Made by a program: the position numbers and the translations under genes. A stretch of 4,416 nucleotides of DNA from a virus (lineage: Duplodnaviria; Heunggongvirae; Uroviricota; Caudoviricetes): positions 1-4,416 of IMG/VR virus record IMGVR_UViG_2657245112_000032; one strand, 5' to 3'. Within the stretch, counting starts at the first letter, position 1. Each line of letters starts with the position of its first letter. Below the pieces are notes generated by a model, which ran no database searches, was not told the origin of the DNA, and saw only the letters and a program-made list of their open reading frames with translations. Shown here piece by piece: positions 1 through 4,416 of the stretch.

Positions 1-1
1 G

Positions 2-511
2 TTTATTGGTGAAGGTGATGCATACATTCCACCTCATACAGGTCTGCCTGCAAACAGTACCGATATTGCCCCGCCAGATATTCCGGCTGGCTTCGTGGCC
101 GTTTTCAACAGTGATGAGGCATCGTGGAATCTCGTTGAAGACCATCGGGGAAAAACCGTCTATGACGTGGCTTCCGGCGACGCGTTATTTATTTCTGAAC
201 TTGGCCCATTACCGGAAAATGTCACCTGGTTATCCCCGGAAGGGGAGTTTCAGAAGTGGAACGGCACAGCCTGGGTGAAAGATGCAGAAGCAGAAAAACT
301 GTTCCGGATCCGGAAGGCGGAAGAAACAAAAAACAGCCTGATGCAGATGGCCAGTGAGCATATTGCGCCACTTCAGGATGCCGTAGATTTGGATATTGCG
401 ACGGAGGAAGAGGCATCGTTACTGACTGCATGGAAGACATATCGGGTATTGTTGAATCGTGTTGATACAACAGTAGCATCGGATGTTGAGTGGCCAGTCG
501 CCCCGCAATAA
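2..511 (+). CDS. tfa: Tail fibre assembly protein (lambda Tfa / E. coli prophage TfaE-TfaR family), 5'-truncated by the window edge
   Basis: The reading frame is open from position 2 and continues through the listed ORF 95-511 (its first codon at 95 is GTG inside the frame, not the true start). Translation [42 protein letters not shown]...[20 protein letters not shown] matches, from memory, the lambda Tfa family almost along its length. Stop TAA at 509-511. GC about 53%. The true start lies upstream of the window. Confidence 0.85.
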
Positions 512-518
512 AAGGATA

Positions 519-546
519 AAGCCATCGATAGAAATATTGATGGCTT
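519..546. terminator. Hairpin between convergent genes (tfa on plus, acetyltransferase on minus); likely intrinsic terminator, strongest in the minus direction
   Basis: Inverted repeat AAGCCATCGAT (519-529) / ATTGATGGCTT (536-546), 11 bp stem with one G-U pair and a 6-nt loop AGAAAT. On the minus-strand transcript it is followed by a U-rich tail (UAUCCUUUUAUU). It lies 8 nt downstream of the acetyltransferase stop (555-557) and 8 nt after the tfa stop. Confidence 0.5.
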
Positions 547-554
547 CATGTACT

Positions 555-1127
555 CTATTTATACAATACAACACCGCTCTTTTTTGTTATATATGTGCAG
601 TTCGATGGTATATCTTTATTTATAAAAGACATTGCACCTATTTTTACATTATCCCCAATTTTACGTGATAATCCAATGATGCAACAATTAGCTCCGATAT
701 CAACGTTATTACCAATTTTTACTCTTGAACCAGGCATGTCACCATCTACCTGTCCAATGGTAGTATTCTGTCGCAAAACCAGATTTTCACCAGCATCAAC
801 AGCAAAATGAACAACAATTCCAGTATGATGGGGAATTGTTAAACCTTTTCCAATATTTGCGCCCAATCCAATTTCGCAACCAAATCTGTTAATTATATTA
901 TTGTTTAACTTTCTGGCTGCTTTCTTATGTAATTTATTGCCATTAATATACATTTCATTAGCCAGTCTCCACCAGAAAAGGAAATTCCGATTGCGCTGCT
1001 TCTTCTCTCTTAATAGTCGCCAAACATCCATTTTTTCACGCCTGATGATTTCAGCCATCCAGTAGCTCAATAGAGCTTTTGAATTCCCGAAGATGACAAA
1101 GTGAATAGCTATTAAGTAACATAACAT
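555..1127 (-). CDS. Hexapeptide-repeat (left-handed beta-helix) acetyltransferase, CysE/WcaB/NodL-like
   Basis: Minus-strand ORF of 190 aa. The C-terminal half has consecutive hexapeptide repeats ([LIV]-G-x-x-x-x: IGLGAN, IGKGLT, IGQVDG, IGNNVD, IGANCC, IGDNVK, IGAMSF) typical of LbH acyltransferases. Start is uncertain: ATG at 1125-1127 (190 aa) or in-frame ATG at 1056-1058 (MAEIIRREK..., 167 aa); neither has a strong SD. GC about 32%, far below the flanking genes. Confidence 0.75.
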   Translation of the reverse strand: MLCYLIAIHFVIFGNSKALLSYWMAEIIRREKMDVWRLLREKKQRNRNFLFWWRLANEMYINGNKLHKKAARKLNNNIINRFGCEIGLGANIGKGLTIPHHTGIVVHFAVDAGENLVLRQNTTIGQVDGDMPGSRVKIGNNVDIGANCCIIGLSRKIGDNVKIGAMSFINKDIPSNCTYITKKSGVVLYK

Positions 1128-1595
1128 ATTGCAACTGCCTATATTTTTTGGTTTCTATGTTTATATATTGACATTATAATTAAAACAATAATCATCAGTG
1201 TGTTACTGCGTTCCTGCTAAACTAAATCAACGCACAATGTAAACACAAATGTTAATTTTAAACTGAGCGCTAAAGGGATGTCAATATTGTATTGATAATG
1301 AGTTGCAAGATTGCCAACACTTTCTATATTTTTGGATGTAATAATTTATATTTTATCTATTTAGTGTTTCTTTAGACTTATTAAGGATGTCATTATTAAT
1401 TTATGGCTTGCCATTTCTATACATATCTGTTAAAAATTTTGACTTGTTTGTTGAAAATAGATTTAATTGATTGGTTTATTTTTACATGACGCTCTTTAAT
1501 ATAGCTTCAGGTATATATAAGCACAATGCATTATTTCCAGAGGAAATTAACAAAATTGTTAGCTCTTATTTGTTGAGCTTATAGATATTAATTAA
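1128..1595. promoter_or_regulatory. Very AT-rich non-coding region (about 20-30% GC), probable promoter/regulatory region of the acetyltransferase cargo gene and possible H-NS-type silencing target
   Basis: No ORF of meaningful length on either strand and stop codons are dense; sampled 60-nt blocks give 17-32% GC. Candidate sigma70-like elements exist on both strands: minus strand TTGTTT-17-TATAAA at about 1188-1160, plus strand TTGACT (1439-1444)-17-TTTAAT (1462-1467). Such matches are expected by chance in AT-rich DNA. Confidence 0.4.
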
Positions 1596-1614
1596 GGCCC
1601 GATTCCGGGCCTTT
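1594..1614. terminator. GC-rich hairpin, candidate intrinsic terminator (possibly bidirectional)
   Basis: AAGGCCCG-ATTC-CGGGCCTT: 6 G-C pairs plus 2 A-T pairs, 4-nt loop. Followed by TTT on the plus strand and by a UUAAUUAAUAU tail in the minus direction. It sits immediately after the stop (1617-1619) of the minus-strand small ORF and at the boundary between the AT-rich region and the GC-normal operon region. Confidence 0.5.
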
Positions 1615-1616
1615 CC

Positions 1617-1853
1617 TCATTCCGGCTTTTCGGGAAACGTTACTGGAAGGATGGAGGTATCCGTGGATTCGACTTTCTGCGCATAGAGAATCCACTCGGT
1701 TAATTTTTGTTTACCCTGAACGGAAATAATGCCTAGCCGTAACTGTGAGTCCCAGAGCTGAGTTTTATCCCTGACGAGCTGTAGCAGGCTTTGCTTTTCT
1801 TTTTCCGCTTGTTGTCTTTGCATGACCGGTTGAGAAGTTACTTTGCATACCAT
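1617..1853 (-). CDS. Hypothetical small protein (78 aa), divergent from the operon; coding status uncertain
   Basis: Minus-strand ATG at 1853-1851 (MVCKVTSQPVMQRQQAEKEK...PEKPE), stop TGA at 1619-1617, hairpin directly downstream. AGGAGG (complement of 1856-1861) lies only 2 nt before this ATG, which is suboptimal. Several rare codons (AGA, AGG, CTA, CGG). The listed 165-aa ORF 1617-2114 extends antisense through the holin-like gene with an S/T/P-rich translation, so I truncate it to the first ATG after the SD. Confidence 0.4.
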   Translation of the reverse strand: MVCKVTSQPVMQRQQAEKEKQSLLQLVRDKTQLWDSQLRLGIISVQGKQKLTEWILYAQKVESTDTSILPVTFPEKPE

Positions 1854-1881
1854 TACCTCCTGACAACGTAGGAGGGAACTT

Positions 1882-2211
1882 GTGCTTGACACACAGGAAT
1901 TAGCTCCAGTTGCTATTGCGCTCCTGCTTTCAGTAATTGGTGGGATAGGCACGTTCCTGATGGATGTCCGAGACGGTCGCCAGTCTGGCAATTTGTTAGG
2001 ATTGGTTACGGAGATCTTTGTTGCAGTGACAGCTGGCGCGGTGGCGTACCTATTGGGGCAACACGAGGGCTGGGAGTTATCAATTACGTACTTAATGGTA
2101 ACGATAGCCAGCAATAACGGTCATGAGGTGATTTCAGGGATGAAACGAGTGAATATCGATAGCATTCTGAATGTTCTTACAAGTTTGGTGAAAAAGGGAG
2201 GCGGGAAATGA
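1882..2211 (+). CDS. Small three-transmembrane membrane protein, holin-like (class I holin topology)
   Basis: GTG start at 1882 preceded by AGGAGG (1870-1875) with a 6-nt spacer; an in-frame stop at 1861-1863 excludes a longer N-terminus. 109 aa with three hydrophobic segments (LAPVAIALLLSVIGGIGTFLM, LLGLVTEIFVAVTAGAVAYLLG, WELSITYLMVTIASN) and a charged C-terminal tail ending KKGGGK. Loose resemblance to lambda S-family holins by memory. Stop TGA at 2209-2211 overlaps the next start (ATGA). Confidence 0.7.
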   Translation: MLDTQELAPVAIALLLSVIGGIGTFLMDVRDGRQSGNLLGLVTEIFVAVTAGAVAYLLGQHEGWELSITYLMVTIASNNGHEVISGMKRVNIDSILNVLTSLVKKGGGK

Positions 2212-2651
2212 TTGGCTGGGGTGTATGCGTTCTTGCGTTAGCCTTAGCCGATCGCTATTTGCTAAAACGCAAGGACATCACGCACTTAGAACTTGGTGAT
2301 GTGGAAATTAAACCGGGTTTCATCCGGGTGCCGTTCAAATACCGGTCTAAATTCCCGTTTTTGCGCGGCGCAACGGTCAGATATTGGATCCGCGATGTTC
2401 AGAAGCCGACGACAGTGATTGAAGGCGAACAACGTTGTCTGACGTCGGCTGAACAGGGCGAAAACAGTGAATGGTTGTACATACCCACTGAATATATGGG
2501 TAAAGGAGAGCGACTGTGGCATTTCAACGTCATGGTTACGCATGGCGACTCGTTCATTAACCCGTTGTATCGGATTTTCCCTGTTACTCAGCAAATCCGC
2601 AGAAGTTACGTAATAAATCTCGCACAGGATGTGTCAGATGACGAAAAATAA
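2208..2651 (+). CDS. Hypothetical protein with N-terminal signal peptide or membrane anchor (147 aa); candidate holin partner (antiholin-like) or periplasmic component
   Basis: ATG at 2208 overlaps the upstream stop by 4 nt (ATGA). GGGAGG at 2196-2201 with a 6-nt spacer. N-terminus MIGWGVCVLALALA followed by DRYLLKRKD (hydrophobic h-region, possible AxA cleavage site). No recognisable lysozyme catalytic motif. Stop TAA at 2649-2651. Confidence 0.65.
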   Translation: MIGWGVCVLALALADRYLLKRKDITHLELGDVEIKPGFIRVPFKYRSKFPFLRGATVRYWIRDVQKPTTVIEGEQRCLTSAEQGENSEWLYIPTEYMGKGERLWHFNVMVTHGDSFINPLYRIFPVTQQIRRSYVINLAQDVSDDEK

Positions 2652-3240
2652 GTATGCAACGGTCGATTTTGACCAGGTTAATGAAAAGGGGCTGAAATCC
2701 CTTATCGCGGCGATCAATAAAACCGGGGTTACGGTAATTGAGGTTGACTCCAGCAACCGCGCAACAACGAAAGATGGCGTTAAAGTTAAAACCGCAAAGC
2801 TGGTTCTTAACGACGGACAAATTCTTGCCATACAGGTAAACGATACTGGCGATATATCGTCTGTGAAACTGAATGGAAAAGCTATTCCTAACGCTCAGTC
2901 GCCGGATATCAAGACGCTTGGTACCGTCATGGGACAGGCGGCTCGCAAAAACTCCGCAAAATTCCAGAAATCACTGATCGCCAAAGCGAAGCGTGTTGCC
3001 AATCCGGTAGACAAGAAACCGGCAGTTAAATCCAACTTTCAGCGCCTGCAAGAGGCAAAACAGCGGAATGCTCAGGTGGTTGCCGCTTATAAATCAGCTC
3101 AGAACTCGGTGTCTTTCAATCAACAGCAGATCACTGATTTGCGGGGGAAGCTGGATAAGGAGACAGGCCGACTCAATAACGAAAAGGCCCGAAATGGCGA
3201 ACTCAAACGCCGTCTTAAGCAACTGAAAGCAGGAAATTAA
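2638..3240 (+). CDS. Hypothetical protein (200 aa) with a C-terminal coiled-coil/basic region; paralog of the downstream gene
   Basis: Preferred start is ATG 2638 (AGGA at 2626-2629, 8-nt spacer), overlapping the upstream gene by 14 nt; the listed ORF start at 2629 is in the same frame. The C-terminal about 80 aa are K/R/Q/E-rich with heptad-like spacing (QRLQEAKQRNAQVVAAYKSAQ...LKRRLKQLKAGN). The central domain is homologous to a domain in the next gene. Stop TAA at 3238-3240. Confidence 0.7.
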   Translation: MTKNKYATVDFDQVNEKGLKSLIAAINKTGVTVIEVDSSNRATTKDGVKVKTAKLVLNDGQILAIQVNDTGDISSVKLNGKAIPNAQSPDIKTLGTVMGQAARKNSAKFQKSLIAKAKRVANPVDKKPAVKSNFQRLQEAKQRNAQVVAAYKSAQNSVSFNQQQITDLRGKLDKETGRLNNEKARNGELKRRLKQLKAGN

Positions 3241-3241
3241 C

Positions 3242-4243
3242 ATGGAACAGTTCAATATCAATAAAGGGGTGACGATCAAGCCTGGGCTTGACGTGCTTCC
3301 CCCGCCAGTGACTGATGATGAATATCGCGCATTAATGGCCGGTGAGGACCGCTATCTGATGACGGAATCCAACACCCTGGAGGAAATCGAGGCTACGTTC
3401 TTCTATGACACGCCGATCCACTGGTGTGCTACGGATTTACTGGAGGCGATTAGTTCTACTCGTTTGCAGTTACACCGGACCATGCAGGCATTTGTCCGGG
3501 CATTGAACCAGAAGCTGAATGGTACCGGAATCTCTGCGGGGAGTGATAAAACGGGCGATGTGGCCCAGAGCGGCGCGCGCGCGATCGGCGGCGCTGAAAT
3601 TGGTCGGGCACGTAACGTTAACGGGCTGCCGGTCCTGCCAGCCATTATTCCGCTCAGTGATGGTCAGACTATCAGCATTCTGTTTCATAGCCCGACAGCG
3701 GAAAACCGGATCACCAATAGCGATACGCTGGTTGCTTTCCAGTTCTTACTGAATAAAAAAGACGTTACTCACACCGTTGCTCCGATGAGTGGACGTGATA
3801 TGACGCTGGCGCAGGTCACCATGAAACTTGCCAACCTTGCAGAGAAAAACTCGGCAAAATTCCAGCGTGCGCAGAAGAAGAAAAAAGCCCTTGTTGATGA
3901 AATAACCCAACTACAGGCTGACAGTGACCAGAAAGAGGATGCCATGAGCGACCTCGCGGATCAGGTGGCAGCGGTAGAAGGGCAGAAGGCAGATCTGGAG
4001 CAGAAAATTAACGCTGTTGCATCGGAAGCGGATTCTCTTTATGAAGAGAATGAGCGTTTGCAGACGGAGATTGATCAGCTCAATCGCACTGGTGGGCGCG
4101 ATACCATTGCTCCTGCGGGGATGACTGGTGGGTACTCTCGCGCGCTGACGGATCGCCTTGCCAGTATCAAAAATCGTATGCATATGAACGGGGAAGTGAC
4201 GCTCAGTACTGAGAGATCCCCTCATAATTTCCCCAAAGCGTAA
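3242..4243 (+). CDS. Hypothetical protein (333 aa) with a domain paralogous to the upstream gene, followed by an acidic coiled-coil
   Basis: ATG at 3242 lies 1 nt after the upstream stop; AGGA at 3231-3234 with a 7-nt spacer. Contains a Gly/Ala-rich segment (GTGISAGSDKTGDVAQSGARAIGGAEIGRAR), a domain alignable with the upstream protein (LSDGQTISILF...DMTLAQVTMKLANLAEKNSAKFQ), and a long predicted coiled-coil (ALVDEITQLQADSDQKEDAMSDLADQVAAVEGQKADLEQKINAVASEADSLYEENERLQTEIDQL). Stop TAA at 4241-4243. Confidence 0.75.
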   Translation: MEQFNINKGVTIKPGLDVLPPPVTDDEYRALMAGEDRYLMTESNTLEEIEATFFYDTPIHWCATDLLEAISSTRLQLHRTMQAFVRALNQKLNGTGISAGSDKTGDVAQSGARAIGGAEIGRARNVNGLPVLPAIIPLSDGQTISILFHSPTAENRITNSDTLVAFQFLLNKKDVTHTVAPMSGRDMTLAQVTMKLANLAEKNSAKFQRAQKKKKALVDEITQLQADSDQKEDAMSDLADQVAAVEGQKADLEQKINAVASEADSLYEENERLQTEIDQLNRTGGRDTIAPAGMTGGYSRALTDRLASIKNRMHMNGEVTLSTERSPHNFPKA

Positions 4244-4416
4244 CCATGTGTGAATAAATTTTGAGCTAGTAGGGTTGCAGCCACGAGTAAGTCTTCCCTT
4301 GTTATTGTGTAGCCAGAATGCCGCAAAACTTCCATGCCTAAGCGAACTGTTGAGAGTACGTTTCGATTTCTGACTGTGTTAGCCTGGAAGTGCTTGTCCC
4401 AACCTTGTTTCTGAGC

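Follow-up and report, generated by a model that had tools for sequence, protein, structure and literature searches.

Phage P1 carries its holin LydA and antiholin LydB in the dar operon (Schmidt, Velleman & Arber 1996; Lobocka et al. 2004, both as cited by Bednarek et al. 2022, PMC9025707). Bednarek et al. 2022 (PMC9025707) call the P1 layout of lysis genes atypical: the genes for Lyz and LydD share a late operon, those for LydA and LydB belong to the dar operon, also late and not linked to the first, and the spanins are encoded in a third. Here we analyse a stretch of 4,416 nucleotides (nt) of viral DNA (IMG/VR record IMGVR_UViG_2657245112_000032, positions 1 to 4,416; hereafter, the window), in which two overlapping genes at 1882–2651 are, judging from sequence comparison, almost certainly the lydA–lydB pair of a P1-like plasmid prophage and the first two genes of its late dar operon. 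This is an already known pair, the holin and antiholin of P1, at the normal position for the family, and the separation of the P1 pair from its endolysin has been on record since 1996.

Phage lambda encodes the S105/S107 holin–antiholin system with the R endolysin adjacent (PMC9025707). As in P1, a small inner-membrane holin there shares its transcript with an antagonist, which sets the time of triggering. However, lambda makes its antiholin from the holin gene itself, as a product two residues longer, and has the endolysin and spanin genes adjacent, whereas LydB is an unrelated protein of 147 amino acids (aa) with the endolysin gene about 8–10 kb off. In phage T4, holin T is accompanied by two separate antiholins: RI, periplasmic and anchored by a signal–arrest–release (SAR) segment, and the cytoplasmic RIII. 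Here the likeness to LydB lies in a separate globular antiholin thought to bind the holin and in the dispersal of the lysis genes; the predicted orientation of LydB, with an N-out anchor and a cytoplasmic domain, differs from that of RI. Searches of PDB by sequence and by fold revealed no relationship of LydB to the T4 antiholins, and LydB has no known role in superinfection-dependent lysis inhibition. Phage 21 combines the S21 pinholin with a SAR endolysin, the arrangement that a first-pass annotation of the window had in mind for the two genes. Its P1 counterpart is LydD plus Lyz; this module lies elsewhere in P1-like genomes, and the gene after lydA does not encode a SAR endolysin.

The lydA–lydB pair and its genomic context

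The holin gene lydA (1882..2211, plus strand) starts with GTG and encodes 109 aa; lydB, the gene of the antiholin and LydA antagonist (2208..2651, plus strand), starts with ATG and encodes 147 aa. Reading of the sequence placed Shine–Dalgarno-like purine-rich motifs before both starts, GGAGGG at 1871–1876 for lydA and GGGAGG at 2196–2201 for lydB. The junction of the two genes reads GGGAAATGATTGG, with the lydB start codon (ATG, 2208–2210) and the lydA stop codon (TGA, 2209–2211) forming a 4-nt overlap (ATGA). The ATGA-coupled overlapping open reading frames (ORFs) listed in the first-pass annotation thus exist as claimed, and the first of them encodes a small membrane protein.

Both products are nearly identical to their P1 counterparts. 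LydA shows 100% aa identity to P1 LydA, with one synonymous nt difference between the genes, and matches Pfam family PF16083 (Phage_holin_3_3, LydA holin phage, holin superfamily III; 30.1 bits, just over the gathering cut-off of 28.4; E 5e-7) and PHROG 1527 (holin, 4e-49). LydB is 98.6% identical to P1 LydB, from which it differs by two substitutions in 147 positions (A79T and S132R), and is identical to LydB of phage vB_EcoM-Ro157c2YLVW (hereafter Ro157c2YLVW), the closest phage relative of the window. It matches PF16084 ("LydA-holin antagonist") over its entire length (residues 1–147 against profile positions 1–147, 344 bits, E 8e-104) and PHROG 1898 (lysis determining protein, 4e-85). A word-indexed search with LydB produced 16 matches, all of them to PF16084, and a profile search of 1.84 billion representative proteins yielded 60 clusters, almost all with proteins of 137–158 aa. 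These identities and family matches, together with the P1 gene order, identify the pair as lydA and lydB; no evidence contradicting this identification was found in the analysis.

At the nucleotide level, a megablast search of phage genomes aligned window positions 1822–4208/4211 to P1, P7, SJ46, RCS47 and other Punavirus genomes with 98.5–99.4% identity, the annotated features beneath the match being lydA, lydB, hdf and darA. This gene order is that of annotated P1 (NC_005856) and is also found in P7, SJ46, RCS47 and Ro157c2YLVW. The entire window up to 4211 matches Ro157c2YLVW (98.0%) and approximately 20 Escherichia coli P1-like plasmids (~99%). Base-by-base comparison with P1 over 1822–2651 revealed five nucleotide differences. 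The P1 late promoter LPdar is found at 1835..1853 on the plus strand, with its -22 box AAGTTACTT at 1835–1843 and its -10 box TACCAT at 1848–1853, and matches the annotated LPdar of NC_005856 base for base. The window therefore shares with P1 the same two genes, their ATGA overlap, LPdar, and hdf and darA downstream.

The window contains no endolysin gene, and none of its seven principal ORFs matched a hydrolase family in Pfam; a hydrolase gene beside the holin gene, the mark of a canonical lysis cassette, is absent here. In P1, lyz (20325–20882) belongs to its own late operon with lydD and lydE, lyz and lydD together occupying 20.1–20.9 kb, and lydA lies at 30854–31183. The corresponding positions in Ro157c2YLVW are 13.9–14.5 kb for lyz and 24.2–24.5 kb for lydA. 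All of 19 P1-like phage records contain lyz, at least 98.7% identical to the P1 gene, and from such near-identical relatives the genome of the window itself probably carries lyz and lydD as well. The first-pass annotation had pointed out that no endolysin gene is adjacent to the holin gene and had considered a holin/antiholin pair set apart from its endolysin. It was right on both counts: lyz lies ~8–10 kb away in the relatives, and both the roles of the two proteins and their separation from lyz are published (PMC9025707).

The location of the pair had been described as non-canonical, which holds in comparison with the lambda-type cassette only. An alignment-based search for related loci yielded near-identical P1-like loci only, and we inspected the contigs encoding six diverged LydB relatives (L085, L088, L091, L093, L094 and L096; 25–37% identity). 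In each of them a gene for a LydA-type holin of 99–114 aa is located directly upstream of the LydB gene, and the two are separated by a 1-nt gap at most or overlap by up to 11 nt. PF16083 was matched by the holins of five of the six relatives, with E-values from 1e-7 to 1.5e-3; the L093 holin is encoded by a GTG-start ORF (2700–2999) that was left uncalled in the source annotation and has an obviously LydA-like sequence. The same holin–LydB adjacency is found in phage JK004. A gene of 201–210 codons follows LydB in all six relatives, its product matching DarA_N in five (two of the matches are weak; none is on record for L088). The large gene that comes next encodes DarA domains in L085 and L093, as well as in L086 and L087, which do not belong to the six; elsewhere it lacks annotation or is truncated. 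All six diverged relatives sampled thus keep the order LydA-type holin, LydB, Hdf-like protein, large gene, and this conserved synteny argues that the location of lydAB is the conserved and ancestral one for the family, and a normal one within it.

One of these contigs offers a separate observation. In L088, a gene at 2056–2601, directly upstream of the LydA-type holin gene, encodes a 181-aa homologue of Peptidase_C92, a permuted papain-like amidase (E 2.6e-6, 28 bits against a cut-off of 27). It could represent an adjacent endolysin candidate, hinting that the separation of holin and endolysin in P1 is derived.

Predicted topology of LydA and fold of LydB

LydA contains two strong hydrophobic segments of transmembrane (TM) length, at residues 9–27 (mean Kyte–Doolittle hydropathy 2.16) and 38–59 (1.88). 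A third stretch, at approximately 64–79, is short and weak (19-residue mean 0.78, 17-residue mean 0.69), and the C-terminal tail is basic, with five Lys/Arg residues. Small size, two or more TM-length segments and a basic C-terminal tail are traits of the family, and LydA displays them all.

To count the spans, we used hydropathy and the charge statistics of nine homologues gathered by synteny: the window LydA, JK004 LydA, P1 LydC and the six syntenic holins. Over these nine proteins, the mean number of Lys and Arg residues is 0 in the N-terminal tail, 2.9 in loop 1, 0.4 in loop 2 and 4.9 in the C-terminal tail. The third segment reaches TM grade in distant members (17-residue means 1.56–1.92), and in the homologues it is closed by a conserved S/A-N-N/G-G motif. 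The Lys/Arg pattern and the TM-grade third segment of distant members favour a protein that more likely spans the membrane three times, with the N-terminus out and the C-terminus in, rather than two. Two points weigh against three spans: the weakness of the third segment in P1 LydA (0.69–0.78) and the published description of LydA as a class II holin with two predicted TM helices (PMC9025707). Accordingly, the earlier label of a class I-like protein with three TM segments agrees with the lean of the family-wide data, but the hydropathy of LydA itself yields two strong segments and a weak third.

The fold of LydB was modelled with AlphaFold2. A model built from 8 sequences was of moderate quality, with a predicted local distance difference test (pLDDT) value of 74.8; with 38 diverse sequences, pLDDT rose to 92.4 at a predicted template modelling score of 0.83, and the model comprised a helix at residues 2–19 and a beta-sandwich at 24–138. 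The predicted fold is an N-terminal helix followed by an immunoglobulin (Ig)-like beta-sandwich, and not a hydrolase. Neither Pfam nor the PDB sequence search nor the fold search found a peptidoglycan-hydrolase signature in LydB, in agreement with the first-pass annotation, which had recognised no lysozyme signature in gene 2 and had proposed structure prediction as a check that might expose an ordinary lysis cassette. Among viral predicted structures, the fold search hit uncharacterised proteins only, and these weakly (best E 1.8e-4, template modelling score 0.6), which is uninformative. LydB is also described as having no homologues of known function (PMC9025707).

The N-terminal helix of LydB includes an uncharged run of 14 residues, MIGWGVCVLALALA, with a best 19-residue hydropathy of 1.62. 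The hydrophobic run is kept in 38 members of the LydB family, where it comprises 10–24 uncharged residues with best 19-residue hydropathies of 1.1–2.6, and it is terminated by a nearly invariant D/E-R-x-x-L-x-R motif. Charges are distributed unevenly around it: on the N-terminal side the mean net charge is -0.6, with one Lys/Arg in total over the 38 members, and the 12 residues following the run have a mean net charge of +2.3. The window LydB likewise has no Lys/Arg ahead of the helix and a basic segment after it, which is not the charge pattern of a SAR endolysin. By the positive-inside rule, this asymmetry suggests that the helix is a reverse anchor, N-out/C-in, of polarity opposite to that of a SAR or signal anchor, with the beta-sandwich at the cytoplasmic face of the membrane. 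The N-terminal signal/anchor segment reported earlier for gene 2 is therefore present as an uncharged hydrophobic run, but its charge polarity is the reverse of that expected.

Membrane insertion of the LydB helix is plausible. An anchored LydB has to be set against the borderline nature of the run for a membrane span, at only 14 residues and a hydropathy of 1.62, and against the published view that LydB has no predicted TM domain and an unknown mode of action (PMC9025707). Other topologies have a low to moderate probability. LydB could be a soluble cytoplasmic protein without an anchor; however, the hydrophobic run is conserved and is longer in most relatives (15–24 residues, 19-residue hydropathy up to 2.6). 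Alternatively, an N-in/C-out anchor resembling that of T4 RI would place the beta-sandwich in the periplasm, where it would bind a periplasmic loop of LydA. Here the positive-inside rule stands in the way, since Lys/Arg occurs on the N-terminal side of the helix in only 1 of the 38 members and the C-terminal side carries about +2.3; a match of LydB to TMEM106B is uninformative on topology because the Ig-like fold is generic.

The same data bear on a cryptic lysis cassette, in which the holin or pinholin would be the product of gene 1, and gene 2 would encode an endolysin, SAR-type or signal-anchored, with a hydrolase domain too diverged for sequence recognition. Such an arrangement would fit the N-terminal hydrophobic helix of LydB, which is rich in Gly and Ala, the ATGA overlap with the holin gene, and the lack of sequence-level annotation for LydB beyond its own family. 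We nevertheless put its probability close to nil. The formal resemblance to a holin plus SAR-endolysin pair fails on the helix and Ig-like beta-sandwich fold of LydB and on the reversed charges around the helix, and the cassette is excluded by these two features together with the genetics presented below.

Lysis timing and the role of the pair

Cloned lydA is lethal, and liquid cultures of E. coli are not lysed by P1 mutated in lydA, hence the designation of LydA as the main holin (PMC9025707). With respect to LydB, the same source, citing Walker & Walker 1980 and Schmidt et al. 1996, reports that lydB amber mutants lyse prematurely and that lydB delays lysis caused by plasmid-borne lyz and lydA (PMC9025707).

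In the explanation that we consider almost certain for the window, the dar operon (lydA–lydB–hdf–darA and further genes) is transcribed from the Lpa-dependent late promoter LPdar, with translation of lydA and lydB probably coupled via the ATGA overlap. LydA, as the main holin, builds up in the inner membrane during late infection before it triggers, leading to collapse of the proton motive force and to permeabilisation of the membrane; LydB acts as a separately encoded antiholin that delays this triggering. The hydrolase served by the pair is the SAR-endolysin Lyz, encoded ~8–10 kb away in a late operon of its own that also contains the gene of the pinholin LydD. For LydB we infer attachment to the inner membrane through the N-terminal helix, N-out/C-in, with the beta-sandwich in the cytoplasm. 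There it may hold LydA through the basic cytoplasmic loop or C-terminal tail of the holin, along with helix–helix contacts, until LydA outnumbers LydB.

We put forward tentatively, as a possibility on which we would not rely, that LydB represents a new structural type of antiholin. It would be a reverse-anchored cytoplasmic Ig-like beta-sandwich, with the D-R-x-x-L-x-R motif as its interface, clamping a three-span LydA via the basic cytoplasmic loop or tail. The same proposal would functionally tie the timing of lysis to the Dar/capsid-morphogenesis module, beyond a chance neighbourhood of the genes, a connection suggested by the co-inheritance of lydAB with the hdf and darA genes for head-internal proteins, which extends to relatives with as little as ~25% LydB identity.

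A different role was considered in the first-pass annotation, which envisaged a holin-like protein repurposed as an effector of exclusion or abortive infection. In its full form this would mean a holin-like toxin with its cognate inhibitor, serving superinfection exclusion or abortive infection and not the release of progeny. The pair indeed lies outside a classical lysis cassette, beside anti-restriction genes and a moron-like acetyltransferase island, and the layout of a holin with its antagonist is formally like a toxin–antitoxin pair. However, the phenotypes of the mutants, failure to lyse for lydA and early lysis for lydB, concern lysis timing (PMC9025707), LPdar is a phage late promoter and not a lysogenic one, and the association with the virion-protein genes hdf and darA is kept in distant phages. 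Neither LydA nor LydB matched a defence system in PADLOC or NCBIfam, and a role as a defence effector was rejected on this basis. We consider exclusion or abortive infection highly improbable as the function of the pair and find no support for the repurposing suggested earlier.

Flanking genes and implications for P1-like phages

Downstream of lydB lies hdf (2629..3240, plus strand), the third gene of the dar operon, which encodes a DarA_N-domain protein of 203 aa (PF18788, 1e-21; PHROG 1620, Hdf-like, 6e-80) that differs from P1 Hdf by three substitutions. Its start varies between records: P1 is annotated with the ATG at 2629 (203 aa, 23-nt overlap with lydB), and Ro157c2YLVW with the ATG at 2638 (200 aa). 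It is followed by the 5′ half of darA (3242..4208, plus strand; codons 1–322 of 639; PF18788 DarA_N, 4.5e-43), which is collinear with darA of P1 and Ro157c2YLVW up to 4208, where the homology ends.

The remainder of the window (4209..4416) is the terminus, comprising the first 208 bp, of an IS10/ISVsa5 insertion sequence (IS) of the IS4 family inserted in darA. It begins with CTGAGAGATCCCCTCATAATTTCC at 4209, as the reference end of IS10 does. In 1355 E. coli genomes, none of which has the darA junction, positions 4209–4416 match copies annotated as "IS4-like element ISVsa5 family transposase". The interrupted darA ORF runs 11 codons into the IS and stops at 4243. The darA gene is intact in P1, and the layout of the window minus IS10 is common to Ro157c2YLVW and ~20 E. 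coli P1-like plasmids. The junction (4208/4209) occurs in none of the phage, plasmid and complete E. coli genome records searched, so the insertion is apparently peculiar to the source strain. A Dar-minus phage should result, possibly with polar effects on ddrA and ddrB.

The region upstream of the promoter departs from reference P1, which has lydC, cin and the invertible C-segment there, whereas the window has a different tail fibre assembly (tfa) gene, an acetyltransferase island and a tfa remnant. The tfa gene (95–511) is of the lambda-gpK type. The acetyltransferase gene (555–1127, minus strand) encodes a hexapeptide-repeat O-acetyltransferase of 190 aa, which is EpsC/WcaB/CysE-like but well below equivalog cut-offs and matches PHROG 2154, of unknown function. 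An AT-rich spacer of ~490 bp separates it from the tfa remnant (1617..1850, minus strand), a 77-aa 3′ remainder of a U′-like tail-fibre assembly gene that covers only positions 60–131 of the 131 in the PF02413 Caudo_TAP profile (E 5e-18) and is named U′ in the annotation of Ro157c2YLVW. The first-pass annotation had placed the lydA module after the tail fibre assembly gene; this is loosely true, as tfa ends at 511, but the acetyltransferase gene, the spacer and the remnant intervene before lydA.

The AT-rich island (~512–1600) has a GC content of 27–36%, as measured between ~450 and ~1650, versus ~48% in the flanks, and occupies the place of U′, Sv′, cin and lydC in P1, between the tail-fibre genes and the dar operon. 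The island is common to Ro157c2YLVW and ~20 E. coli P1-like plasmids. It looks like a moron, possibly encoding a surface-polysaccharide acetylase. At its edge, just past the stop codon of the tfa remnant, direct reading revealed a GC-rich hairpin, GGCCCG-ATTC-CGGGCC (1596–1611). It is followed by TTT on the plus strand and by an A/T-rich run on the minus strand, so it may act as a bidirectional terminator. On the other side of the remnant, its ATG (1848–1850) is the reverse complement of part of the LPdar -10 box. Base by base, identity to P1 begins abruptly at 1822, a position that marks a recombination breakpoint a short distance upstream of LPdar.

No lydC-like gene was found upstream of lydA (window positions 1128–1881), and a tblastn search with P1 LydC in Ro157c2YLVW gave LydA itself as the only match (31% identity). 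The lineage of the window and Ro157c2YLVW thus seems to lack the accessory holin LydC and to lyse its host with LydA, LydB, LydD and Lyz.

The value of the result lies in correct annotation, since many records of P1-like plasmids designate these genes only as "phage holin family protein" or "hypothetical protein". The forward-looking elements are confined to the hypothesis on LydB structure and topology, the suggestion that LydA has three spans, and the conservation of lydAB–hdf–darA in distant relatives. The remaining interest is narrow and concerns the mechanism of LydB: the model, the charge asymmetry and the synteny bear on an antiholin action that would be neither lambda-like nor T4-like. 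They also raise the question of why an antiholin travels with the Dar anti-restriction and capsid genes.

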